Positions 1 through 62,152 of a stretch of 64,000 nucleotides of DNA are shown here, one piece after another. The stretch's first letter is position 1, and every line of letters starts with the position of its first letter. The stretch lies in assembly GCF_041248615.1 (NCBI RefSeq), contig NZ_CP158426.1. The stretch is one strand, 5' to 3'. Made by a program: the position numbers and the translations under genes. The notes below the pieces were generated by a model. The model was not told where the DNA came from and searched no databases. It saw nothing but the letters and a program-made list of their open reading frames with translations. This DNA comes from Escherichia coli (GTDB taxonomy: Bacteria; Pseudomonadota; Gammaproteobacteria; Enterobacterales; Enterobacteriaceae).

Positions 1-206
1 ATGCCATGCTGGATGACGATTCCACGTTGCAAAAAGCCCGTACGAAATTCCTTCAGGCTTACGAAGGCAACATGATGGTGCGTGGCGAAGGTGATGATAT
101 CTGGTATCAAAGGCTCTGGCGGCAATTAACACCAGAGACAATGGAGGCCATCGTTGAACAGTCGCAACGTTTCCTGTTACCGCTGTTTCGCTTTAATCAG
201 TCATGA
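1..206 (+). CDS. recC: RecBCD exonuclease V gamma subunit RecC, C-terminal fragment (5' end lies outside window)
   Basis: ORF ends ...LPLFRFNQS, reading frame open to window edge; sits immediately upstream of ptrA-recB-recD as in E. coli. Recognised from memory. Confidence 0.8.
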   Translation, partial: AMLDDDSTLQKARTKFLQAYEGNMMVRGEGDDIWYQRLWRQLTPETMEAIVEQSQRFLLPLFRFNQS

Positions 207-381
207 GTGCTGTATAAAAATTGCGCAATCTATCCGCTTACTTTATGATGCGCACCAGTCACGGACTGATGGTTATATAAACATAGGCTGACTCGTGCAG
301 CACAAGATTAAATTCTGGCAGATGATTTGCGTTAACGTGTTGAATCTGGACAGAAAATTAAGTTGATTATGAGGTCCGTGA

Positions 382-3270
382 ATGCCCCGCAGCACCTGGT
401 TCAAAGCATTATTGTTGTTAGTTGCCCTTTGGGCACCCTTAAGTCAGGCAGAAACGGGATGGCAGCCGATTCAGGAAACCATCCGTAAAAGTGATAAAGA
501 TAACCGCCAGTATCAGGCTATACGTCTGGATAACGGTATGGTGGTCTTGCTGGTTTCTGATCCGCAGGCAGTTAAATCGCTCTCGGCGCTGGTGGTGCCC
601 GTTGGGTCGCTGGAAGATCCCGAGGCGTACCAGGGGCTGGCACATTACCTTGAACATATGAGTCTGATGGGGTCGAAAAAGTACCCGCAGGCTGACAGTC
701 TGGCCGAATATCTCAAAATGCACGGCGGTAGTCACAATGCCAGCACTGCGCCGTATCGCACGGCTTTCTATCTGGAAGTTGAGAACGACGCCTTGCCTGG
801 TGCGGTAGACCGCCTGGCCGATGCTATTGCTGAACCTTTGCTCGACAAGAAATATGCCGAACGTGAGCGTAATGCGGTGAACGCTGAATTAACCATGGCG
901 CGTACGCGTGACGGGATGCGCATGGCACAGGTCAGCGCAGAAACCATTAACCCGGCACACCCCGGTTCAAAGTTTTCTGGTGGTAACCTCGAAACTTTAA
1001 GCGACAAACCTGGTAATCCGGTGCAGCAGGCGCTGAAAGATTTCCACGAGAAGTACTATTCCGCCAATTTGATGAAGGCGGTTATTTACAGTAATAAACC
1101 GCTGCCGGAGTTGGCAAAAATGGCGGCGGACACCTTTGGTCGCGTGCCGAACAAAGAGAGCAAAAAACCGGAAATCACCGTGCCGGTAGTCACCGACGCG
1201 CAAAAGGGCATTATCATTCATTACGTCCCTGCGCTGCCGCGTAAAGTGTTGCGCGTTGAGTTTCGCATCGATAACAACTCAGCGAAGTTCCGTAGTAAAA
1301 CCGATGAATTGATTACCTATCTGATTGGCAATCGCAGCCCAGGTACACTTTCTGACTGGCTGCAAAAGCAGGGATTAGTTGAGGGCATTAGCGCCAACTC
1401 CGATCCTATCGTCAACGGCAACAGCGGCGTATTAGCGATCTCTGCGTCTTTAACCGATAAAGGCCTGGCTAATCGCGATCAGGTTGTGGCGGCAATTTTT
1501 AGCTATCTCAATCTGTTACGTGAAAAAGGCATTGATAAACAATACTTCGATGAACTGGCGAATGTGCTGGATATCGACTTCCGTTATCCGTCGATCACCC
1601 GTGATATGGATTACGTCGAATGGCTGGCAGATACCATGATTCGCGTTCCTGTTGAGCATACGCTGGATGCAGTCAATATTGCCGATCGGTACGATGCTAA
1701 AGCAGTAAAGGAACGTCTGGCGATGATGACGCCGCAGAATGCGCGTATCTGGTATATCAGCCCGAAAGAGCCGCACAACAAAACGGCTTACTTTGTCGAT
1801 GCGCCGTATCAGGTCGATAAAATCAGCGCACAAACTTTCGCCGACTGGCAGAAAAAAGCCGCCGACATTGCGCTCTCTTTGCCAGAGCTTAACCCTTATA
1901 TTCCTGATGATTTCTCGCTGATTAAGTCAGAGAAGAAATACGACCATCCAGAGCTGATTGTTGATGAGTCGAATCTGCGCGTGGTGTATGCGCCAAGCCG
2001 TTATTTTGCCAGCGAGCCCAAAGCTGATGTCAGCCTGATTTTGCGTAATCCGAAAGCCATGGACAGCGCCCGCAATCAGGTGATGTTTGCGCTCAATGAT
2101 TATCTCGCAGGGCTGGCGCTTGATCAGTTAAGCAACCAGGCGTCGGTTGGTGGCATAAGTTTTTCCACCAACGCTAACAACGGCCTTATGGTTAATGCTA
2201 ATGGTTACACCCAGCGTCTGCCGCAGCTGTTCCAGGCATTGCTCGAGGGGTACTTTAGCTATACCGCTACGGAAGATCAGCTTGAGCAGGCGAAGTCCTG
2301 GTATAACCAGATGATGGATTCCGCAGAAAAGGGTAAAGCGTTTGAGCAGGCGATTATGCCCGCGCAGATGCTCTCGCAAGTGCCGTACTTCTCGCGAGAT
2401 GAACGGCGTAAAATTTTGCCCTCCATTACGTTGAAAGAGGTGCTGGCCTATCGCGACGCCTTAAAATCAGGGGCTCGACCAGAGTTTATGGTTATCGGCA
2501 ACATGACCGAGGCCCAGGCAACAACGCTGGCACGCGATGTGCAAAAACAGTTGGGCGCTGATGGTTCAGAGTGGTGTCGAAACAAAGATGTAGTGGTCGA
2601 TAAAAAACAATCCGTCATCTTTGAAAAAGCCGGTAACAGCACCGACTCCGCACTGGCAGCGGTATTTGTACCGACTGGCTACGATGAATACACCAGCTCA
2701 GCCTATAGCTCTCTGTTGGGGCAGATCGTACAGCCGTGGTTCTACAATCAGTTGCGTACCGAAGAACAATTGGGCTATGCCGTGTTTGCGTTTCCAATGA
2801 GCGTGGGGCGTCAGTGGGGCATGGGCTTCCTTTTGCAAAGCAATGATAAACAGCCTTCATTCTTGTGGGAGCGTTACAAGGCGTTTTTCCCAACCGCAGA
2901 GGCAAAATTGCGAGCGATGAAGCCAGATGAGTTTGCGCAAATCCAGCAGGCGGTAATTACCCAGATGCTGCAGGCACCGCAAACGCTCGGCGAAGAAGCA
3001 TCGAAGTTAAGTAAAGATTTCGATCGCGGCAATATGCGCTTCGATTCGCGTGATAAAATCGTGGCCCAGATAAAACTGCTGACGCCGCAAAAACTTGCTG
3101 ATTTCTTCCATCAGGCGGTGGTCGAGCCGCAAGGCATGGCTATTCTGTCGCAGATTTCCGGCAGCCAGAACGGGAAAGCCGAATATGTACACCCTGAAGG
3201 CTGGAAAGTGTGGGAGAACGTCAGCGCGTTGCAGCAAACAATGCCCCTGATGAGTGAAAAGAATGAGTGA
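382..3270 (+). CDS. ptrA: Protease III (pitrilysin), periplasmic M16 zinc metalloprotease
   Basis: 962 aa ORF with signal peptide and HxxEH inverted zinc motif (GLAHYLEHM); stop overlaps recB start. Confidence 0.95.
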   Translation: MPRSTWFKALLLLVALWAPLSQAETGWQPIQETIRKSDKDNRQYQAIRLDNGMVVLLVSDPQAVKSLSALVVPVGSLEDPEAYQGLAHYLEHMSLMGSKKYPQADSLAEYLKMHGGSHNASTAPYRTAFYLEVENDALPGAVDRLADAIAEPLLDKKYAERERNAVNAELTMARTRDGMRMAQVSAETINPAHPGSKFSGGNLETLSDKPGNPVQQALKDFHEKYYSANLMKAVIYSNKPLPELAKMAADTFGRVPNKESKKPEITVPVVTDAQKGIIIHYVPALPRKVLRVEFRIDNNSAKFRSKTDELITYLIGNRSPGTLSDWLQKQGLVEGISANSDPIVNGNSGVLAISASLTDKGLANRDQVVAAIFSYLNLLREKGIDKQYFDELANVLDIDFRYPSITRDMDYVEWLADTMIRVPVEHTLDAVNIADRYDAKAVKERLAMMTPQNARIWYISPKEPHNKTAYFVDAPYQVDKISAQTFADWQKKAADIALSLPELNPYIPDDFSLIKSEKKYDHPELIVDESNLRVVYAPSRYFASEPKADVSLILRNPKAMDSARNQVMFALNDYLAGLALDQLSNQASVGGISFSTNANNGLMVNANGYTQRLPQLFQALLEGYFSYTATEDQLEQAKSWYNQMMDSAEKGKAFEQAIMPAQMLSQVPYFSRDERRKILPSITLKEVLAYRDALKSGARPEFMVIGNMTEAQATTLARDVQKQLGADGSEWCRNKDVVVDKKQSVIFEKAGNSTDSALAAVFVPTGYDEYTSSAYSSLLGQIVQPWFYNQLRTEEQLGYAVFAFPMSVGRQWGMGFLLQSNDKQPSFLWERYKAFFPTAEAKLRAMKPDEFAQIQQAVITQMLQAPQTLGEEASKLSKDFDRGNMRFDSRDKIVAQIKLLTPQKLADFFHQAVVEPQGMAILSQISGSQNGKAEYVHPEGWKVWENVSALQQTMPLMSEKNE

Positions 3271-6200
3271 TGTCGACGAGACACTAGATCCTTTGCGCTT
3301 GCCCTTACAGGGTGAGCGCCTGATTGAAGCCTCTGCCGGCACAGGCAAAACCTTTACGATTGCGGCGCTCTATTTGCGCCTGTTACTTGGACTAGGCGGT
3401 TCCGCCGCCTTTCCCCGCCCGCTGACCGTTGAAGAACTGCTGGTGGTCACCTTTACCGAGGCTGCCACGGCAGAATTGCGCGGTCGTATCCGTAGCAATA
3501 TCCACGAGTTGCGCATCGCCTGTCTGCGTGAAACCACCGACAATCCACTGTACGAACGCCTGCTGGAAGAGATCGACGATAAAGCGCAAGCCGCGCAGTG
3601 GTTGTTGTTAGCCGAACGGCAGATGGATGAAGCGGCAGTCTTTACTATTCACGGCTTTTGCCAGCGCATGCTCAACCTGAATGCCTTTGAATCCGGCATG
3701 CTGTTTGAGCAGCAGCTGATTGAAGATGAGTCTCTGCTACGCTACCAGGCCTGCGCCGATTTCTGGCGTCGCCACTGCTACCCGCTGCCGCGTGAAATAG
3801 CCCAGGTCGTCTTTGAAACCTGGAAAGGGCCGCAGGCGTTGCTGCGCGATATTAATCGTTATCTGCAAGGCGAAGCGCCGGTTATCAAAGCACCGCCGCC
3901 CGATGATGAAACGCTGGCTTCCCGTCACGCGCAAATTGTGGCGCGTATTGATACGGTAAAACAGCAGTGGCGCGACGCAGTGGGTGAACTGGATGCGCTG
4001 ATCGAATCTTCTGGTATTGATCGACGCAAGTTTAACCGTAGCAATCAGGCTAAATGGATCGACAAGATCAGCGCCTGGGCAGAAGAAGAGACAAACAGTT
4101 ATCAGTTGCCGGAGTCGCTGGAAAAATTCTCCCAGCGTTTCTTAGAAGATCGCACGAAGGCCGGGGGGGAAACCCCGCGACATCCACTGTTTGAGGCGAT
4201 CGATCAACTGCTTGCAGAACCATTGTCGATCCGCGATCTGGTGATCACCCGCGCATTGGCTGAGATCCGCGAAACAGTAGCGCGTGAAAAACGCCGCCGT
4301 GGCGAATTGGGTTTTGATGACATGTTAAGTCGGCTCGATTCCGCGCTGCGTAGCGAAAGCGGTGAGGTGTTGGCAGCGGCGATCCGTACGCGATTCCCGG
4401 TGGCAATGATCGATGAATTTCAGGATACCGACCCCCAGCAGTACCGAATTTTTCGCCGTATCTGGCACCATCAGCCGGAAACCGCATTGTTGCTAATTGG
4501 CGACCCGAAGCAGGCCATATATGCATTCCGGGGTGCGGATATCTTCACTTATATGAAGGCGCGTAGCGAAGTTCACGCCCACTACACTTTAGACACCAAC
4601 TGGCGTTCCGCACCAGGAATGGTGAACAGCGTGAATAAGCTTTTCAGCCAGACTGATGACGCGTTCATGTTTCGCGAAATACCGTTTATTCCAGTGAAAT
4701 CAGCCGGGAAAAATCAGGCGTTACGTTTTGTATTTAAAGGTGAAACACAGCCTGCGATGAAAATGTGGCTGATGGAAGGCGAAAGCTGCGGCGTTGGCGA
4801 TTATCAAAGTACCATGGCGCAGGTATGTGCTGCGCAAATCCGCGACTGGCTACAAGCCGGACAGCGGGGCGAAGCGTTGCTGATGAACGGCGACGACGCG
4901 CGTCCGGTGCGTGCTTCGGACATCAGTGTGCTGGTGCGCAGCCGCCAGGAGGCCGCCCAGGTGCGCGATGCCTTAACGTTGCTGGAAATCCCTTCCGTTT
5001 ACCTTTCGAACCGCGACAGTGTTTTTGAAACTCTGGAAGCGCAGGAAATGCTTTGGTTGTTGCAGGCGGTGATGACGCCCGAACGTGAGAACACCCTGCG
5101 TAGTGCGCTGGCAACGTCAATGATGGGGCTGAACGCGCTGGATATCGAAACGCTGAACAATGACGAACATGCGTGGGATGTGGTAGTCGAAGAGTTCGAT
5201 GGTTATCGGCAAATCTGGCGCAAACGTGGCGTTATGCCGATGCTGCGGGCGCTGATGTCGGCGCGTAACATTGCTGAAAACTTGCTGGCAACGGCAGGCG
5301 GTGAGCGGCGTCTTACCGATATCTTGCATATCAGCGAACTGCTACAAGAAGCCGGAACGCAGCTGGAAAGTGAACATGCGCTGGTACGCTGGTTATCGCA
5401 ACATATCCTCGAGCCAGACAGTAATGCCTCCAGCCAACAAATGCGTCTCGAAAGTGATAAACATCTGGTGCAGATTGTCACGATCCACAAATCGAAAGGG
5501 CTGGAATATCCATTGGTCTGGCTGCCGTTTATCACCAATTTCCGCGTCCAGGAGCAGGCGTTTTATCACGATCGCCACTCGTTTGAGGCAGTTCTGGATC
5601 TTAATGCTGCGCCAGAAAGCGTCGACCTCGCGGAGGCCGAACGTCTGGCGGAAGATCTGCGTTTGCTTTACGTGGCGCTGACACGTTCGGTTTGGCATTG
5701 CAGTCTCGGCGTTGCACCGCTGGTGCGCCGTCGTGGCGATAAAAAAGGTGACACCGACGTCCACCAAAGTGCGCTCGGGCGTTTGCTGCAAAAAGGGGAA
5801 CCGCAAGATGCGGCAGGGCTTCGCACCTGTATTGAAGCGTTATGCGATGATGATATTGCCTGGCAAACGGCACAAACTGGTGATAACCAACCCTGGCAGG
5901 TTAATGATGTTTCTACAGCAGAGCTGAATGCGAAGACGTTACAACGATTGCCCGGCGATAACTGGCGCGTCACCAGCTACTCTGGTTTGCAACAGCGTGG
6001 TCACGGTATCGCCCAGGATTTGATGCCTCGGCTGGATGTCGATGCTGCAGGCGTTGCCAGCGTCGTTGAAGAACCGACGTTAACACCACATCAGTTTCCG
6101 CGCGGTGCGTCACCGGGGACGTTCTTGCACAGTTTGTTTGAAGACCTGGATTTTACCCAGCCGGTTGACCCGAACTGGGTGCGGGAAAAACTGGAACTCG

Positions 6201-6805
6201 GCGGCTTTGAATCGCAGTGGGAACCGGTATTGACCGAGTGGATCACGGCTGTCCTCCAGGCACCTCTCAATGAAACCGGCGTAAGCCTGAGTCAACTTTC
6301 CGCCCGCAATAAACAGGTGGAGATGGAGTTTTATCTGCCGATTAGTGAACCGCTTATCGCCAGTCAGCTTGATACGTTAATCCGCCAGTTTGACCCGCTA
6401 TCCGCAGGCTGCCCGCCGCTGGAGTTCATGCAGGTACGTGGCATGTTAAAAGGCTTTATCGACCTGGTGTTCCGCCACGAAGGGCGTTATTACCTGCTCG
6501 ACTATAAATCCAACTGGTTGGGTGAAGACAGTTCGGCTTACACCCAACAGGCTATGGCAGCGGCAATGCAGGCACACCGCTATGATCTGCAATATCAGCT
6601 TTATACCCTGGCGCTGCATCGTTATCTGCGCCATCGCATTGCTGATTACGACTATGAGCACCACTTTGGCGGCGTTATTTATCTGTTCCTGCGTGGCGTT
6701 GATAAAGAACATCCGCAACAGGGGATTTACACAACCCGACCCAACGCCGGGTTGATTGCCCTGATGGATGAGATGTTTGCCGGTATGACCCTGGAGGAGG
6801 CGTAA
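3263..6805 (+). CDS. recB: RecBCD helicase/nuclease subunit RecB
   Basis: 1180 aa from ATG at 3263 (MSDVDETLD...); Walker A GTGKT near N-terminus; the track ORF begins 9 nt earlier at a GTG. Overlaps ptrA stop by 8 nt. Confidence 0.95.
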
Positions 6806-8631
6806 TGAAATTGCAAAAGCAATTACTGGAAGCTGTGGAGCACAAACAGCTACGCCCGCTGGATGTGCAATTTGCCCTGACCGTGGCGGGAGATGAACAT
6901 CCTGCCGTCACCCTCGCGGCGGCACTGTTAAGTCATGATGCCGGAGAGGGACACGTTTGTTTGCCGCTTTCACGACTGGAAAATAACGAGGCGTCGCATC
7001 CGCTGTTGGCGACCTGTGTCAGTGAAATCGGTGAGCTACAAAATTGGGAAGAATGCTTGCTGGCTTCTCAAGCGGTCAGCAGGGGAGATGAACCCACGCC
7101 GATGATCCTCTGTGGCGATCGTCTTTATTTGAATCGCATGTGGTGTAACGAGCGCACAGTGGCACGCTTTTTCAACGAAGTGAATCATGCCATTGAGGTT
7201 GATGAAGCTCTACTGGCGCAAACCCTGGACAAACTTTTTCCAGTAAGCGATGAAATTAACTGGCAAAAAGTTGCGGCGGCAGTGGCGCTGACGCGGCGGA
7301 TCTCGGTGATTTCCGGCGGCCCTGGCACCGGTAAAACGACCACCGTAGCGAAGTTGCTGGCAGCGTTAATTCAAATGGCCGACGGCGAACGCTGCCGTAT
7401 CCGTCTGGCTGCACCAACGGGTAAAGCTGCCGCGCGCTTAACCGAATCTCTCGGCAAGGCTTTGCGACAGTTACCGCTGACCGATGAACAAAAGAAACGC
7501 ATTCCGGAAGATGCCAGCACTTTGCACCGATTGCTGGGCGCGCAGCCGGGTAGCCAGCGTTTACGTCATCATGCCGGTAACCCGCTGCATCTTGATGTGC
7601 TGGTGGTAGATGAAGCGTCAATGATCGATCTGCCTATGATGTCGAGACTGATCGACGCCTTGCCCGATCATGCGCGAGTGATCTTTCTCGGCGATCGTGA
7701 TCAACTGGCCTCGGTTGAGGCTGGGGCTGTGCTGGGCGATATCTGCGCTTATGCCAACGCGGGCTTTACCGCCGAGCGTGCCAGGCAGCTAAGCCGCCTG
7801 ACGGGGACTCACGTTCCGGCAGGAACCGGCACAGAAGCGGCATCTTTGCGCGACAGTCTCTGCCTGCTGCAAAAAAGCTATCGTTTCGGCAGCGATTCTG
7901 GCATTGGTCAGTTAGCTGCGGCGATCAACCGTGGTGATAAAACGGCAGTGAAAACCGTTTTTCAGCAGGATTTTACTGATATCGAAAAACGGCTTTTACA
8001 GAGCGGCGAAGATTATATTGCGATGCTTGAGGAAGCTCTTGCGGGTTACGGACGTTATCTGGATCTGCTGCAAGCGCGTGCCGAGCCGGATTTAATCATT
8101 CAGGCGTTCAATGAGTACCAGCTTTTGTGCGCCCTGCGGGAAGGGCCGTTTGGCGTGGCTGGACTGAATGAGCGAATTGAGCAGTTTATGCAACAGAAGC
8201 GCAAAATTCATCGTCATCCGCACTCTCGTTGGTACGAAGGTCGACCGGTGATGATTGCCCGTAATGACAGCGCGCTTGGGTTGTTTAATGGCGATATCGG
8301 TATTGCGCTGGATCGCGGGCAGGGGACGCGCGTCTGGTTTGCGATGCCGGACGGCAATATTAAGTCTGTGCAACCGAGTCGCTTGCCAGAGCACGAAACT
8401 ACGTGGGCGATGACGGTACATAAATCGCAGGGATCGGAGTTCGACCATGCGGCGTTGATTTTGCCGAGCCAACGCACGCCGGTAGTAACGCGAGAGCTGG
8501 TTTATACCGCGGTGACCCGCGCGCGTCGCCGTCTGTCGCTGTATGCCGATGAGCGCATATTAAGTGCGGCAATCGCCACTCGTACTGAGCGGCGCAGTGG
8601 TCTGGCGGCGTTGTTTAGTTCACGGGAATAA
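6805..8631 (+). CDS. recD: RecBCD helicase subunit RecD
   Basis: 608 aa; Walker [11 protein letters not shown]; ATG overlaps recB TAA by 1 nt (TAATG), consistent with translational coupling. Confidence 0.95.
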
Positions 8632-8640
8632 ACGTAATTG

Positions 8641-8681
8641 CCGGATGCGACGTACGAGTGTTACGCATGTCGCATCCGACG
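8641..8681. repeat. REP-like palindrome between convergent recD and argA (likely bidirectional terminator)
   Basis: ccggatgcgacg...cgtcgcatccgac inverted repeat seen directly in sequence. Confidence 0.6.
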
Positions 8682-8692
8682 ATTTTCATCGC

Positions 8693-10024
8693 TTACCCTA
8701 AATCCGCCATCAACACTTTGGATTTACGCTGGTAGTTGTACAACTGCTTTTTGCTCTCGGGCAGTAAATCAATATCCACTGGGGTAAATCCACGTTCCTG
8801 GAACCAGTGAATACTGCGCGTGGTCAGCACAAACAATTTGCTTAAGCCGCTCTGCTTCGCCTGAGCGGCAATGCGTTCCAGCAGAACTTCACCCCTTGAT
8901 GAACTGCGGTAATCCGGGTGAACTGCCACACAGGCCATTTCCCCAATCTTCTCTTCCGGGAACGGATAGAGCGCGGCGCAGGCAATAGTCGTGTTATCGC
9001 GCTGAATAATGGTGAATTTGTCGATTTCCATCTCCAGCTGCTCGCGAGAACGGCGTACCAGAATACCTTGCTGCTCCAGTGGGCGAATCAACTCCAGAAT
9101 ACCGCCAATATCGTTGATTGTTGCGCGACGAATCTGCTCGGCGCTTTCCATCACAATCTGCGTACCGATACCGTCGCGTGAGAACAACTCTTGCAACAGC
9201 GCGCCATCTTCCTGATAACTGATTAAATGACAGCGACGCACGCCGCTGCGGCAGGCTTTCACTGCGCCACGCAAAAAGCGCACCGTACCGGAGTTGTAAT
9301 CGCCTTTCTCTTCCTGGGCTTCTACCCGCGCTTGCGCTTCGTTAGGGAAAAGTTCGGAGACAATATCACCGTCGTCATTAGTGACGCCCTGGGAAGAGCA
9401 AAAACCAATCATCTTTTCAGCTTTCAGTTTGATGGCCAGTTGAGTGGCAATCTCTTCCGAGGTCAGGTTAAAGCTCTCGCCAGTGACTGAAACAGCGACC
9501 GGCCCCATTAGCACTATTGCACCGCTGTCCAGTTGACGATGGATCGCGTCTTCATCAATCCGCCGGATACGCCCGCTATGGCAGTAATCCACGCCGTCAT
9601 CGACGCCCAGCGGCTGGGCAATAATAAAATTGCCACTGACGACGTTGATATGCGCGCCCTGCAGCGGCGTGTTATTGAGACTCATCGACAGGCGAGCAGT
9701 AATATCCAGTTGCAATGTTCCCGCAGCCTGCTTCACCAGTTCCAGTGTTTTGGCGTCGGTCACACGTATATTCTTGTGATACAGCGGTTCGTGGTGATGC
9801 GCAGCCAGATTTGCGTCGATCTGCGGACGTGCGCCATAGACCACCACCAGACGGATGCCGAGGCTGTGCAACAACCCGATATCATTAACGATACTGGAGA
9901 AATTCTCATGCTCAATGGCTTCACCGCCGAGCATGATGACAAACGTTTTTCCCCGGTGGGTATTGATATAGGGAACCGAATGGCGGAATCCCTCGACCAA
10001 CTCGGTTTTACGTTCCTTTACCAC
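8693..10024 (-). CDS. argA: N-acetylglutamate synthase
   Basis: 443 aa from GTG at 10024 ([13 protein letters not shown]...) with AAGAGG ribosome-binding site upstream; the track ORF extends 22 codons further upstream. C-terminal GNAT domain. Confidence 0.9.
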
Positions 10025-10255
10025 GGCACACCTCTTTGCATGATTATTCGAAATTAGTGTATTTTTATTCTGTTTTTTCGCAGGGTGCAAGTGTAAATTT
10101 TATGCGAGAGCGACTTTTTTATCAGTAATGCCGTGAATATAAAAAGAATGTTTACCGTTTATTAGATGACAGATTATGCGTCTTTCGCTAAAGTTTCCGG
10201 TCAAATTAGTCGTTTACTTGTTACACAGCTTAGATTTCTTTTGCTCGGGAGAGGC

Positions 10256-11509
10256 ATGTCAGGATCCAACACTGCAATCAGCCGTCGTCGTTTACTGCAA
10301 GGCGCGGGTGCCATGTGGCTATTGAGCGTAAGTCAGGTCAGTCTGGCTGCGGTCAGCCAGGTCGTGGCGGTGCGCGTCTGGCCTGCGTCCAGCTACACCC
10401 GCGTGACGGTGGAATCAAATCGTCAGCTGAAATATAAGCAGTTCGCGTTGAGTAACCCTGAACGCGTGGTGGTGGATATCGAAGATGTAAACCTGAACTC
10501 GGTACTCAAGGGGATGGCGGCACAAATTCGTGCAGACGACCCGTTCATCAAGTCGGCGCGCGTCGGGCAATTTGACCCGCAAACCGTACGGATGGTTTTT
10601 GAATTAAAGCAAAACGTAAAACCGCAGCTGTTTGCCCTTGCGCCGGTCGCCGGGTTTAAAGAGCGTCTGGTGATGGACCTCTATCCGGCCAATGCACAGG
10701 ATATGCAGGACCCGCTGCTGGCGCTGCTGGAGGATTACAACAAAGGCGACCTCGAAAAGCAGGTGCCGCCAGCGCAAAGTGGTCCACAACCGGGTAAAGC
10801 AGGGCGCGATCGTCCGATTGTCATTATGCTTGACCCTGGCCACGGTGGCGAAGACTCCGGTGCGGTGGGGAAATACAAAACGCGCGAAAAAGATGTGGTA
10901 TTGCAAATAGCTCGCCGTTTGCGCTCTCTGATCGAGAAAGAGGGCAATATGAAGGTGTACATGACGCGCAATGAAGACATCTTCATTCCATTGCAAGTGC
11001 GCGTAGCAAAAGCCCAGAAACAGCGTGCTGACCTGTTTGTCTCTATCCATGCCGACGCCTTTACCAGTCGTCAGCCGAGCGGTTCCTCTGTGTTTGCGCT
11101 CTCAACCAAAGGTGCAACCAGTACTGCGGCAAAATATCTGGCACAAACCCAGAACGCCTCGGACTTGATTGGTGGCGTGAGCAAAAGCGGTGACCGCTAT
11201 GTCGACCACACCATGTTCGATATGGTACAGTCGCTGACCATTGCCGACAGCCTGAAGTTTGGTAAAGCGGTACTGAATAAGCTCGGTAAAATCAACAAGC
11301 TGCATAAAAATCAAGTTGAACAGGCCGGGTTTGCCGTACTAAAGGCACCAGATATTCCCTCCATTCTGGTCGAAACGGCGTTTATCAGTAACGTTGAGGA
11401 AGAGCGTAAACTGAAAACGGCGACTTTCCAGCAGGAAGTTGCGGAGTCTATTCTTGCGGGGATTAAAGCGTATTTTGCCGATGGGGCGACGCTGGCGAGA
11501 AGGGGATGA
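10256..11509 (+). CDS. amiC: N-acetylmuramoyl-L-alanine amidase AmiC (Tat-exported)
   Basis: Start set at [23 protein letters not shown], which carries a twin-arginine signal; 417 aa; the track ORF has a 30-codon upstream extension. Confidence 0.9.
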
Positions 11510-11510
11510 T

Positions 11511-11540
11511 AAAAAGGCGCTGAATGGCGCTTTTTTATGG
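11511..11540 (+). terminator. Putative intrinsic terminator downstream of amiC
   Basis: aaaaaggcgc-tgaatg-gcgctttttt hairpin followed by T-run. Confidence 0.5.
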
Positions 11541-11551
11541 GAGGCCAGAAA

Positions 11552-11576
11552 CAAAAAAACACCCGTTAGGGTGTTC
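11552..11576 (-). terminator. Putative intrinsic terminator of the tRNA-fMet operon
   Basis: On the minus strand: acaccc-taac-gggtgt hairpin followed by TTTTTTTG, directly 3' of the last tRNA. Confidence 0.55.
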
Positions 11577-11582
11577 AATAAT

Positions 11583-11659
<77 letters not shown>

Positions 11660-11692
11660 TCACCGTACTGCTTTTACTTCATCAAATTTGAT

Positions 11693-11769
<77 letters not shown>

Positions 11770-11802
11770 TCACCGTACTGCTTTACTTCATCAAATTTTA
11801 AT

Positions 11803-11879
<77 letters not shown>

Positions 11880-12087
11880 TCCGTGGATGCGCACTATACT
11901 CCGCTCGCGTTTTCATGCAACCTTTTTTTTACCCCGATCACGGATTTGGCATGATTTTGAACAAAAACAAATCACTAAAGCCTATTTTTTGTGCAAAATT
12001 TGCGTCAGGGAGAGGCTGCTCATTTCATTAAACGCGGCGGTTTGTTATCTTCGTTGCGCCTTATTTTTTAACCTGAAGAAGAGAACA

Positions 12088-17634: not shown

Positions 17635-18030
17635 ATGACCAGCCGTTTTATGCTGATTTTCGCCGCCATTAGCGGCTTCATTTTTGTGGCTCTGGGCGCT
17701 TTTGGCGCGCATGTGTTAAGTAAAACCATGGGGGCCGTTGAGATGGGCTGGATCCAGACCGGCCTCGAATACCAGGCGTTTCATACGCTGGCGATCTTAG
17801 GTCTGGCGGTGGCAATGCAGCGTCGCATCAGTATCTGGTTTTACTGGAGTAGCGTTTTCCTCGCGTTAGGCACGGTGTTGTTCAGCGGCAGCCTTTATTG
17901 CCTGGCGCTGTCCCATCTGCGTTTGTGGGCGTTTGTCACTCCGGTTGGCGGCGTGAGCTTCCTCGCGGGCTGGGCGTTAATGTTAGTTGGTGCTATCCGT
18001 TTAAAGCGCAAGGGCGTAAGTCATGAATAA
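17635..18030 (+). CDS. ygdD: DUF423 inner-membrane protein
   Basis: 131 aa hydrophobic ORF; overlaps rlmM start by 8 nt. Confidence 0.85.
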
Positions 18031-47905: not shown

Positions 47906-48000
47906 TCTTACATAGCTGGATATGGCGTCAGCCGTATCCAGCGATATCTTTTACTCGAAGGTATTACACCTGACGGACCCGCAATTTTCAGGACATTCTA

Positions 48001-54129: not shown

Positions 54130-54277
54130 GGTATAGAATTACTTTAAATATTTGGCTTTTCAATCAATGAATTAAGTGCTCTTTAACATAATGGATGTGT
54201 TGTTTGTGTGTTTCTGTTAAGTTGGTAGATTGTGACTGACTTAAAAAATCAATAATTAATAATAGGTTATGTTTAGT
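54130..54277 (+). promoter_or_regulatory. Putative CRISPR leader (AT-rich) abutting repeat 1
   Basis: AT-rich tract immediately 5' of the first repeat on the repeat-sense strand; no promoter elements were verified. Confidence 0.5.
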
Positions 54278-54672
54278 GAGTTCCCCGCGCCAGCGGGGAT
54301 AAACCGGCTGATGCGGTTCTATCACCACCACAAATTATGAGTTCCCCGCGCCAGCGGGGATAAACCGCAAATACGCGCGAGTGGCTAACCTGGAATCATG
54401 AGTTCCCCGCGCCAGCGGGGATAAACCGGCGCGGACGATAATCAGGGGCAGGCAGGGCACGAGTTCCCCGCGCCAGCGGGGATAAACCGGAAATCCAATA
54501 TTAACGTGGTGTTTTCAAAACGAGTTCCCCGCGCCAGCGGGGATAAACCGCGTTTAGCTCCGCAATGCTGGATATCACTGATGAGTTCCCCGCGTCAGCG
54601 GGGATAAACCGTATGGGAAACAGTAGCAACGGGCACACTGGCGGAGTTCCCCGCGCCAGCGGGGATAAACCA
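54278..54672 (+). CRISPR. Type I-E CRISPR array, 7 repeats and 6 spacers, no cas genes in window
   Basis: 29-bp repeat GAGTTCCCCGCGCCAGCGGGGATAAACCG at 54278, 54339, 54400, 54461, 54522, 54583 and 54644 with 32-bp spacers. Repeat 6 has C13T; the last repeat ends ...CCA instead of ...CCG. Corresponds to the ygcE-ygcF array of E. coli (established knowledge). Confidence 0.95.
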
Positions 54673-55126
54673 CCATATAACCCGTAATCTCTTTCTAAAG
54701 TTTTTATATTAGCAGTACTCGTAATAAGCAACATATCCACGTAACACCTCATGTTCAAAATAGCTCTCCATATATGAGAAGTTCACAATTATCGATACAA
54801 AAAATCAAATTTAATTAAAGTGTTAGTTGTATAATACTTAAATCATTAAGAAATTATCATATATTATTTTTTTAATATTGAATTGATGTTTGTTAGTTTT
54901 TTCTTTAGGATAATAGATTGTTTTTTAAGCTTATTATTCATTGATTAAGTAATAAATCTGGAAATTTGTCTTTGTTTTGAGGCTAATGAGTGGTTTTACA
55001 TAACCGTCTCTATAGACTGTTGATGAATAGTTCTTATGAATAAAGATATCCAGTTCATACTTTAAATGAAAATTGATAAAGTACGGTTTGCGTTGTCTTT
55101 TATTCTAAGGACATCGAGTGTAGTTA

Positions 55127-55265
55127 ATATTCCTTGTAACAACAGGGATAAACCGAACTAGTTAAAGTTTTTATTATGTTCCCTGCATCAGCGGGGATAA
55201 ACCGGACTTGTTATCATTTTTTAAGTTGTCGAACTTATGTTCCCCACGTCAGCGGGGATAACCAT
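55127..55265 (+). CRISPR. Degenerate CRISPR remnant: 3 decayed type I-E repeats with one intact-length 32-bp spacer
   Basis: atgttccctgcatcagcggggataaaccg (55176-55204) and atgttccccacgtcagcggggataacc (55237-55265) flank a 32-bp spacer; a further eroded repeat ...cagggataaaccg ends at 55155. Confidence 0.75.
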
Positions 55266-60722: not shown

Positions 60723-60814
60723 TATGTCAGGCAGCGTTCCGCTATGAGGGGCGTTGCCTTTTCGGCTTCTCAGGCGAGAAGCCGTTCTTATTACCGGACA
60801 ATGAAGGGGTAAAG

Positions 60815-62152
60815 ATGAACACTTCACCGGTGCGAATGGATGATTTACCGCTTAACCGTTTTCACTGTCGAATTGCTGCGCTCACTTTCGGGGCGCACCT
60901 GACCGACGGTTATGTTCTCGGCGTCATTGGTTACGCCATTATTCAGCTTACACCCGCCATGCAACTGACGCCGTTTATGGCGGGAATGATTGGCGGCTCG
61001 GCGCTACTTGGCCTGTTTATCGGTAGCCTGGTTTTGGGGTGGATCTCCGACCATATTGGTCGGCAAAAAATCTTCACCTTCAGCTTTTTGCTGATTACGC
61101 TCGCTTCGTTCTTACAATTTTTTGCCACCACGCCAGAGCATCTTATTGGACTGCGCATTTTGATCGGCATTGGTCTGGGAGGCGATTACTCAGTAGGCCA
61201 CACCTTGCTGGCTGAATTTTCTCCGCGCCGCCATCGCGGTATTTTGCTGGGCGCATTCAGCGTGGTGTGGACCGTAGGCTATGTGCTGGCAAGTATTGCC
61301 GGACATCACTTTATTAGCGAAAGCCCGGAGGCCTGGCGCTGGCTGCTGGCATCGGCAGCTCTGCCCGCATTGTTGATTACGTTATTACGCTGGGGAACGC
61401 CAGAATCGCCACGCTGGCTACTGCGCCAGGGGCGTTTTGCAGAAGCTCACGCTATCGTGCATCGCTATTTTGGTCCCCATGTTTTACTGGGCGATGAAGT
61501 GGCAACGGCGACCCATAAACACATCAAAACCTTGTTCTCTTCGCGCTACTGGCGGCGCACGGCGTTTAACAGCGTCTTCTTTGTCTGCCTCGTAATCCCA
61601 TGGTTTGTGATTTATACCTGGCTGCCAACTATCGCCCAGACTATTGGTCTGGAAGATGCGCTGACAGCTAGCCTGATGCTTAATGCGTTGTTAATTGTGG
61701 GTGCGCTGCTGGGATTAGTTCTGACGCACCTGCTGGCACATCGCAAATTTTTGCTGGGAAGTTTTTTGTTGCTGGCGGCAACGCTGGTCGTGATGGCCTG
61801 TTTGCCTTCCGGCAGTTCATTAACGCTGCTGCTTTTTGTTCTCTTCAGCACCACCATTTCGGCAGTCAGTAATCTGGTGGGCATTTTGCCTGCGGAAAGT
61901 TTTCCTACTGACATTCGCTCGCTGGGCGTCGGTTTTGCCACCGCCATGAGTCGACTTGGCGCGGCGGTAAGTACGGGCCTGCTGCCGTGGGTGCTGGCGC
62001 AGTGGGGAATGCAAGTCACCTTAATGCTCCTGGCGGCAGTGTTGTTGGTTGGTTTTGTTGTGACCTGGCTATGGGCACCAGAAACCAAAGCACTCCCGCT
62101 GGTGGCGGCGGGAAATGTAGGAGGTGCGAATGAACATTCTGTTAGCGTTTAA
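60815..62152 (+). CDS. ygcS: MFS transporter (sugar-porter-like)
   Basis: 445 aa; 3' end overlaps ygcR. Confidence 0.85.
   Translation: MNTSPVRMDDLPLNRFHCRIAALTFGAHLTDGYVLGVIGYAIIQLTPAMQLTPFMAGMIGGSALLGLFIGSLVLGWISDHIGRQKIFTFSFLLITLASFLQFFATTPEHLIGLRILIGIGLGGDYSVGHTLLAEFSPRRHRGILLGAFSVVWTVGYVLASIAGHHFISESPEAWRWLLASAALPALLITLLRWGTPESPRWLLRQGRFAEAHAIVHRYFGPHVLLGDEVATATHKHIKTLFSSRYWRRTAFNSVFFVCLVIPWFVIYTWLPTIAQTIGLEDALTASLMLNALLIVGALLGLVLTHLLAHRKFLLGSFLLLAATLVVMACLPSGSSLTLLLFVLFSTTISAVSNLVGILPAESFPTDIRSLGVGFATAMSRLGAAVSTGLLPWVLAQWGMQVTLMLLAAVLLVGFVVTWLWAPETKALPLVAAGNVGGANEHSVSV

Follow-up and report, generated by a model that had tools for sequence, protein, structure and literature searches.

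In the ptrA-recB-recD operon of Escherichia coli, the start codons of recB and recD overlap the 3' ends of the genes that precede them, which raises the question whether translation of the three cistrons is coupled and whether, as a first-pass annotation of this DNA proposed, such coupling helps determine the subunit stoichiometry of RecBCD. The enzyme contains RecB, RecC and RecD in a 1:1:1 ratio, RecBC that lacks RecD is nuclease-deficient and Chi-independent, and both shortage and excess of RecBCD impair DNA repair. With RecBCD present at only ~5 molecules per cell, keeping RecB and RecD in step is of real physiological interest. The window, i.e. the entire 64,000-nucleotide stretch that was analyzed, is part of an E. 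coli chromosome, and the locus was annotated by mapping onto it the RefSeq annotation of a strain with 100% identity over window positions 3000-9000. PtrA, RecB and RecD are encoded in one operon (PMC12342828), and their genes are co-induced by sigma-E (PMC2731931). The elements of the locus are as follows.

332..367, + strand: Hfq-binding element, 36 nt, in the ptrA 5'UTR (exact match to the published sequence; function from PMC12342828)
382..3270, + strand: ptrA (pitrilysin / protease III), first cistron (RefSeq annotation of the identical record; intact ORF; NCBIfam equivalog NF011681, residues 1-959)
3263..6805, + strand: recB (exonuclease V beta subunit), 1180 aa (RefSeq annotation; intact ORF; NF008128 and TIGR00609 equivalogs)
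6793..6800, + strand: recD Shine-Dalgarno (SD) sequence GGAGGAGG, within the last recB codons (Leu-Glu-Glu-Ala; SD energy -12.1 kcal/mol)
6805..8631, + strand: recD (exonuclease V alpha subunit), 608 aa (RefSeq annotation; intact ORF; NF008127 and TIGR01447 equivalogs)
8636..8684, no strand assigned: REP-like inverted repeat (21-nt arms), located between the convergent genes recD and argA, which are 61 nt apart (repeat analysis)

Both overlaps that had been described at this locus are read directly from the sequence. The recB ATG (3263-3265) lies within the 3' end of ptrA, the TGA of which occupies 3268-3270, and the two genes have in common the 8 nt ATGAGTGA (3263-3270, + strand); at the recB/recD junction, TAATG (6803-6807, + strand), the recB TAA (6803-6805) and the recD ATG (6805-6807) share 1 nt, the base at 6805. 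Thus, at both junctions, genes on the same strand have overlapping stop and start regions (8 nt and 1 nt, respectively), the arrangement expected of coupled cistrons. The NCBIfam equivalog profiles of PtrA, RecB and RecD are matched over their entire length, well above the cut-offs, which supports the start codon calls, and all ten CDSs are intact in the window. An alternative recB start at GTG 3254 was considered and rejected, given that species with a 4-nt overlap (-4) carry an in-frame stop three codons upstream of the ATG; furthermore, in the alignment this ATG corresponds to residue 1 at almost every locus.

These junctions are real, ordinary and already published features of the operon. 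The K-12 ptr(ptrA)-recB-recD operon was reportedly sequenced in 1986 (Finch et al., Nucleic Acids Res. 14), and the two overlaps are textbook operon features that reportedly came out in print together with the gene sequences. The 1-nt overlap of the recB stop and the recD start is given in PMC2586629, and the position of the recB ribosome-binding site inside ptrA is stated in PMC12342828. The K-12 operon described in these two reports is the same locus and has these three genes and both overlaps; the window comes from another strain and shows no difference of substance.

Similar overlaps had been noted elsewhere in the window, at csdA/csdE, ygdD/rlmM and yqcC/truC, and are found exactly as described:

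14724, - strand: csdA/csdE common base (TAATG; sequence read)
18023..18030, + strand: ygdD/rlmM overlap ATGAATAA, 8 nt (sequence read)
35530, + strand: yqcC/truC common base (TAATG; sequence read)

Two more, ygcS/ygcR (23 nt) and ygcR/ygcQ (ATGA, 4 nt), can be added to that list. To our knowledge, neither ygdD/rlmM nor yqcC/truC encodes the partners of a complex. Altogether, overlap is observed in ~7 of ~32 same-strand neighbor pairs of the window (about 1 in 5) and in 7 of the 15 pairs that are no more than 30 nt apart; this frequency is close to the ~15% of E. coli ORF pairs that overlap genome-wide (PMC5318159) and is unremarkable.

The evidence against chance is comparative and lies in the near-invariance of the overlap across related loci. 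Within the species, the ptrA/recB and recB/recD junctions are full-length and at least 95% identical in 5425/5426 and 5424/5426 complete genomes, respectively; the strain of the window carries the RecB Asp5 allele, and its exact 62-nt junction recurs in 68/5425 genomes. Beyond the species, we compared 80 other Enterobacteriaceae loci with RecB identity of 68-97% (79 scorable at recB/recD), a set that represents one family only and is phylogenetically non-independent. An overlap of 4, 8 or 20 nt is present at ptrA/recB in 79 of the 80 loci (-4 in 45, -8 in 31, -20 in 3 and +413 in 1, to which the window adds one -8), and an overlap of 1 or 4 nt at recB/recD in all 79 scorable loci (-4 in 71 and -1 in 8, with one more -1 in the window). 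Parsimony on the RecB tree requires at least 6 changes of geometry at ptrA/recB and at least 3 at recB/recD, and all of these changes but one lead to another overlap. That the overlap was retained through such turnover argues for a constraint on having no spacer. The gene order recC, spacer, ptrA, recB, recD is shared by the window and 78 of the 80 loci (79 sequences with a scorable recC/ptrA junction); in contrast to the two overlapping junctions, recC and ptrA are separated by 110-186 nt in 78 of these 79 sequences. A 413-nt insert separates ptrA from recB in a single genome, and the SD of recB is better there (AGAGGA, -5.8 kcal/mol). The comparative data support the view that the junctions would be held spacer-free by selection across Enterobacteriaceae; the conservation of the overlap while its geometry turns over is a modest addition to what is in print.

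A further addition is the sharp difference in SD strength between the two junctions. The recB SD is almost absent (-2.5 kcal/mol, rank 42 among the 44 window genes; family median -3.0), whereas that of recD is the strongest of the 44 (rank 1; family median -9.9). Among 80 sequences (the window and 79 loci), GGAG is located at -12 from the recD start in 70 and no more than 25 nt from it in 77, and this SD is kept despite the variability of the C-terminal RecB residues that overlie it (LEEA, QETML, SEEAQ, TEEVA, QEVAL and others). As regards a weak ribosome-binding site as a mark of coupling, the recB SD is weak yet its site is unstructured, and the recD SD is strong. In 120-nt segments at the five junctions, local RNA folds are no more stable than those of shuffled sequences (z from -1.65 to +1.28). 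In the minimum-energy fold, the recB ribosome-binding site is unpaired; thus, coupling through ribosome-assisted unfolding is not indicated, and we dropped it as the favored mechanism. An Rfam scan of positions 1-12000 found no known RNA element at the junctions and detected only three tRNA-Met genes. In the sequence scan, neither ptrA/recB nor recB/recD contains a spacer, a consensus promoter or a terminator.

Taken as a reading of the sequence, translational coupling at ptrA-recB and recB-recD is plausible, and for ptrA-recB it was proposed previously (PMC12342828); our literature search turned up no experiment that directly tests, for either pair, whether the downstream gene needs translation of the upstream one. 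The explanation that we consider likely is that these are ordinary operon junctions, selected to be spacer-free, which most likely embody two different translational linkages. The recB start lies within the footprint of a ribosome terminating at the ptrA UGA, and, recB being nearly SD-less, a small share of the ribosomes that finish ptrA would probably re-initiate at the AUG of recB, adding to de novo initiation that is itself weak. Such re-initiation would keep RecB very low and make its output track the translation of ptrA, which would explain how RecB synthesis per mRNA comes under the control of an Hfq site located 2.9 kb upstream, at the ribosome-binding site of ptrA: when this site in the ptrA 5'UTR is deleted, RecB per mRNA rises ~2-fold, from 7.9 to 16.3 (PMC12342828). 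The Hfq effect could instead run via mRNA structure or stability, not ptrA translation. At the second junction, the last recB codons contain the conserved strong recD SD (GGAGG, 7 nt ahead of the AUG), which would retain and restart terminating ribosomes and would also admit free ribosomes for independent initiation, such that this rare mRNA may yield no fewer molecules of RecD than of RecB. Re-initiation, and with it any effect on the RecB:RecD ratio, is what we infer from this arrangement.

Established cases of coupling offer a partial parallel. Classic coupling is reportedly exemplified by trpE-trpD and trpB-trpA (Oppenheim & Yanofsky 1980; Aksoy 1984) and by galT-galK (Schumperli 1982). 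In these pairs, as in ptrA-recB-recD, a single polycistronic mRNA carries stop and start codons that overlap or directly adjoin (TGATG/TAATG or ATGA), and the downstream SD lies within the upstream coding sequence. The dependence of downstream on upstream translation in the classic pairs was reportedly shown with nonsense or frameshift mutations; unlike in these pairs, the products of ptrA and recB are functionally unrelated. Both routes considered here, namely distance-dependent re-initiation (d = -1, -4 and -8) and de novo initiation governed by the SD and local structure, are included in the model of Tian & Salis 2015 (PMC4538824), in which the strongest coupling requires inhibitory structure over the upstream CDS; none that is significant is predicted here.

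Two other explanations have to be weighed against the preferred one, and each draws on some of the same observations. The overlaps could have arisen neutrally, as genome compaction and codon chemistry took their course, with ATGA, TAATG and ATGnnTGA being attractor states that are easily reached upon spacer deletion or stop loss and are unopposed by selection. The same motifs at ygdD/rlmM and yqcC/truC, the frequency of overlaps in the window and genome-wide, and the lack of significant structure at the junctions all fit this explanation, as does the genome-wide finding that relative translation is as variable in overlapped as in non-overlapped ORF pairs (PMC5318159); re-initiation, which has been measured at d = -25 to +25, has small coefficients of 0.007-0.022 (PMC4538824). 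Neutrality does not readily account for an overlap kept in 79/80 and 79/79 loci through at least 9 changes of geometry while synonymous divergence is saturated, next to a recC/ptrA junction that retains its spacer, nor for a recD SD that stays at a constant distance while the encoded amino acids vary or for a stronger recB SD in the sole lineage with a spacer. We regard a purely neutral origin as improbable.

It also seems unlikely to us that expression of recD, and perhaps also of recB, is in essence independent of upstream translation and proceeds from the genes' own ribosome-binding sites and internal promoters, the overlap reflecting tight packing only. In favor of independence, for recD, are its top-ranking SD, a sigma-28 RNA polymerase SELEX peak within recB, ~650 bp upstream of recD (PMC5493296), and, in the available part of PMC2586629, the report of a minor internal recD promoter and of free RecD of wild-type length despite deletion of the recB stop codon. 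Together, the persistence of RecD, the minor promoter and the sigma-28 peak indicate that recD is not strictly dependent on termination at recB, although that part of the report gives free RecD in the fusion strains without an amount. The near absence of an SD at recB and the change in RecB output per mRNA brought about by a cis-acting element located at the ribosome-binding site of ptrA (PMC12342828) count against independent expression of recB. Our consensus promoter scan of positions 1-9000 returned one weak site (under the shuffle expectation) and no sigma-70-like site near either junction; as the known ptrA promoter likewise went undetected, the scan carries no information on internal promoters.

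Returning to the two linkages of the preferred explanation, a more specific and more speculative version, which we put forward only tentatively, is a two-stage control line. In a low-gain, SD-less re-initiation step, from ptrA to recB, RecB synthesis would be held at a small, constant share of PtrA translation, and Hfq bound at the ptrA 5'UTR would act through this step to tune RecB from 2.9 kb away; a high-gain, SD-assisted step from recB to recD would then supply each RecB with a RecD from the same rare mRNA. If this is the case, the turnover of geometry (-8, -4 and -20 at the first junction, -1 and -4 at the second) with retention of the overlap would be a signature of selection on the design.

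The proposal that the overlaps help set RecBCD stoichiometry is tenable in part, i.e. at most for the RecB:RecD ratio; it fails for RecC, the gene of which belongs to a separate operon from recB and recD, and for PtrA. Since PtrA is a periplasmic protease and not a subunit of RecBCD, the ptrA/recB overlap cannot balance subunits. Proportional synthesis of the subunits of complexes has reportedly been described (Li et al. 2014), and, in line with it, RecB and RecC are present in equal counts of ~5 per cell, a matching that, unlike one based on overlaps, extends across two separate operons and hence is not a product of start/stop overlap. Specifically, ~5.0 molecules of RecB and ~4.7 of RecC per cell were counted (PMC6536506); ribosome profiling puts RecB at 33-93 per cell. 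Thus, the overlaps cannot set RecC levels, and matching does not need them. Even for RecB and RecD the claim is weakened because recD has its own strong, conserved SD and RecD persists without the recB stop, because overlapped pairs vary in relative translation as much as others and re-initiation coefficients are small, and because overlaps of the same kind occur at ygdD/rlmM and yqcC/truC, which are not known to form complexes.

Downstream of recD, a terminator-like match (8668-8681) falls inside the REP-like repeat region, and the repeat at 8636..8684 is likely the end of the transcription unit. Elsewhere in the window, the repeat search found a CRISPR array that had been missed by Tandem Repeats Finder.

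Gene calls were made by placing the RefSeq CDSs of one identical strain on the window with blastn, and each CDS was then verified in the window itself for its frame and its start and stop codons. Full-length matches to the NCBIfam equivalog models confirm the identities and annotated start codons of PtrA, RecB and RecD. The 3000-9000 segment occurs with 100% identity in several complete E. coli chromosomes, and at ≥95% identity in 5425 of the 5426 complete genomes of this species. The relevant features are as follows.

332-367, plus strand: 36-nt Hfq-binding element in the ptrA 5'UTR, unchanged relative to the published element (PMC12342828)
382-3270, plus strand: ptrA, with TGA at 3268-3270
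3263-3270, plus strand: ptrA/recB overlap, recB ATG from 3263, 8 nt in common (ATGAGTGA)
6803-6805 (recB TAA) and from 6805 (recD ATG), plus strand: recB/recD overlap, TAATG, 1 common base
14724, minus strand: csdA/csdE overlap, TAATG, 1 common base
18023-18030, plus strand: ygdD/rlmM overlap (ATGAATAA)
35530, plus strand: yqcC/truC overlap, TAATG, 1 common base
ygcS/ygcR overlap, 23 nt, unlisted in the first-pass annotation
ygcR/ygcQ overlap, ATGA, likewise unlisted

The overlaps that the first-pass annotation described, namely, the recB ATG within the ptrA 3' end, the recD ATG on the recB TAA, and similar cases at csdA/csdE, ygdD/rlmM and yqcC/truC, are all present. The feature is ordinary and already known: the first sequencing of the genes, by Finch et al. 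(Nucleic Acids Res. 14, 1986), reportedly noted the overlaps, the one-nucleotide recB/recD overlap is described in PMC2586629, and coupling of recB to ptrA has been proposed in PMC12342828. About 7 of ~32 adjacent same-strand gene pairs in the window overlap (7 of 15 among pairs no more than 30 nt apart), a frequency that agrees with the rate of roughly 15% reported for ORF pairs in E. coli (PMC5318159) and is nothing unusual. Compared with the ygcS start annotated in the reference strain, the window copy (60744-62152) differs by 1 nt in length; its intact ORF starts at 60815 and encodes 445 aa, leaving the overlap with ygcR unaffected.

Queries of 62 nt centred on the junctions gave full-length matches at ≥95% identity in 5425 (ptrA/recB) and 5424 (recB/recD) of the 5426 E. 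coli genomes; the exact ptrA/recB junction sequence of the window was found in only 68 of 5425. A single RecB scan of the genome collection yielded 80 loci from different Enterobacteriaceae species (RecB identity 68-97%), in each of which the ptrA stop, recB start, recB stop and recD start were placed by tblastn and in-frame extension; the window, counted apart, adds one −8 junction (ptrA/recB) and one −1 junction (recB/recD), negative values denoting overlap. At ptrA/recB, the geometry was −4 (ATGA) in 45 loci, −8 in 31 and −20 in 3, with a 413-nt spacer in one, whereas at recC/ptrA, where the promoter and the 5'UTR of the operon lie, 78 of 79 sequences have a 110-186 nt spacer. At recB/recD, 71 of the 79 scored loci had −4 and 8 had −1. 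Parsimony on a neighbour-joining RecB tree requires at least 6 geometry changes for ptrA/recB and 3 or more for recB/recD; with one exception, each results in another overlap. For these non-independent loci of one family, the retention of overlap despite changing geometry argues for a constraint to keep the junctions spacer-free, beyond mere inheritance. This pattern weakens the explanation of the overlaps as neutral genome compaction, which we consider improbable.

The sole junction without overlap, in Intestinirhabdus alba (L019), results from a 413-nt insert (5588-6000 of that locus, 62% G+C) located exactly between ptrA and recB, which alters the PtrA C-terminus (…SEKADGSGH). The recB SD of this locus, AGAGGA (−5.8 kcal/mol), is better than usual for recB; this single case fits compensation for lost coupling. 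In two Pseudocitrobacter species and one Enterobacteriaceae MAG (L039, L041 and L067), recD starts with GTG within GTGA rather than ATG, and the 4-nt overlap is retained. The locus left unscored at recB/recD (L072, E. coli strain E69, CP089930.1) has a RecB match ending at residue 666, the end of the stored locus, on a contig that is a complete chromosome; its recB may be interrupted. RecB residue 5 is Asp in the window (GAC, 3275-3277); codon 5 opens with GC in other Escherichia loci, which excludes Asp there.

Shine-Dalgarno energies, calculated as hybridisation of the 20 nt upstream of the start with the 16S rRNA anti-SD, differ sharply between the two downstream genes: among 44 window genes, recD ranks first (−12.1 kcal/mol), whereas recB ranks 42nd (−2.5 kcal/mol), a contrast that holds across the Enterobacteriaceae loci (medians −9.9 and −3.0, respectively). 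The recD SD, GGAGGAGG at 6793-6800, is made by the recB codons CTG GAG GAG GCG. Across the window and 79 loci, GGAG starts at −12 in 70 of 80 and is no more than 25 nt from the recD start in 77 of 80, despite high variability of the last eight RecB residues (…LEEA, …QETML, …SEEAQ, …TEEVA, …QEVAL), which suggests that the nucleotide motif itself is under selection. Folds of 120 nt at each of the five junctions revealed no structure more stable than shuffled controls (z −1.65 to +1.28), and the minimum-energy fold leaves the recB initiation region unpaired; these results thus lend no support to coupling in which ribosomes help to open an inhibitory hairpin.

We consider it likely that the two junctions work differently, with low-efficiency re-initiation from ptrA to recB and SD-assisted linkage from recB to recD. 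A ribosome terminating at the ptrA UGA would cover the recB AUG, two nucleotides upstream of the P-site codon. Because recB has almost no SD with which to recruit free 30S subunits, ribosomes finishing ptrA probably account, by re-initiation, for a substantial share of its initiation, which would limit RecB to low levels and make them depend on ptrA translation. Measured re-initiation coefficients are 0.022 at −4 and 0.007 at most distances (PMC4538824). Such re-initiation would also explain how the Hfq site at the ptrA RBS affects RecB output per mRNA, which rises from 7.9 to 16.3 upon deletion of the 36-nt element (PMC12342828). At recD, the conserved GGAGG, 7 nt before the AUG, could both hold a post-termination ribosome and recruit free ones.

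That recD, possibly along with recB, is expressed independently of upstream translation seems to us improbable as an explanation. In its favour, according to PMC2586629, wild-type-length RecD is still made when the recB stop is deleted or replaced to fuse recB with recD, which shows that termination at this stop is not required for RecD synthesis; a recD promoter is also reported, and the gene has a strong RBS of its own. Fully independent expression is possible for recD; for recB it is unlikely because the SD is missing. A sigma-28 holoenzyme SELEX peak lies within recB, upstream of recD (PMC5493296). Genome-wide, relative translation efficiency is as variable in overlapped ORF pairs as in other pairs (PMC5318159).

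The proposal in the first-pass annotation that the overlaps set RecBCD stoichiometry is only partly supported and fails for the whole enzyme. PtrA acts as a protease in the periplasm and is no subunit of RecBCD, so the ptrA/recB overlap is unfit to balance the complex. To our knowledge, CsdA-CsdE is the only known complex among the three other pairs, ygdD/rlmM and yqcC/truC not being known to encode one; overlap is thus no marker of subunit balancing. The recC gene forms an operon separate from ptrA-recB-recD (PMC12342828, eLife 2025); the ptrA, recB and recD mRNAs rise together on sigma-E overproduction (PMC2731931). Although recC "is transcribed from another promoter", RecC matches RecB at about 5 molecules per cell each (PMC6536506), so the overlaps cannot set the stoichiometry of all three subunits; the strong RBS and reported promoter of recD also speak against it. 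What stands concerns RecB and RecD: both routes to recD, by retained and by free ribosomes, would help to make RecD synthesis no less frequent than RecB synthesis, with both proteins coming from one mRNA at one location. Such co-production, if true, would be well matched to the assembly of an enzyme with only ~5 copies per cell.

The 61-nt gap between the convergent recD and argA is filled by a REP-like inverted repeat (8636-8684; 21-nt arms, 81% complementary). Three tandem tRNA-Met genes with identical scores lie between amiC and mltA (11586-11879, minus strand). The mazE-mazF toxin-antitoxin pair, whose normal place is between relA and mazG, is missing, with a 95-nt spacer (47906-48000) instead; in most of the 5425 E. 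coli genomes, the match to this stretch is split by mazEF into two parts ~1 kb apart, and only 7 match at ≥99%, at least one contiguously (NZ_OW967178.1). A type I-E CRISPR array of 7 repeats at 61-nt spacing (core GAGTTCCCCGCGCCAGCGGGGATAAACCG), for which Tandem Repeats Finder gave no call, lies between queE and ygcE (54272-54672), and three degenerate repeats follow ~450 nt downstream (55121-55265).
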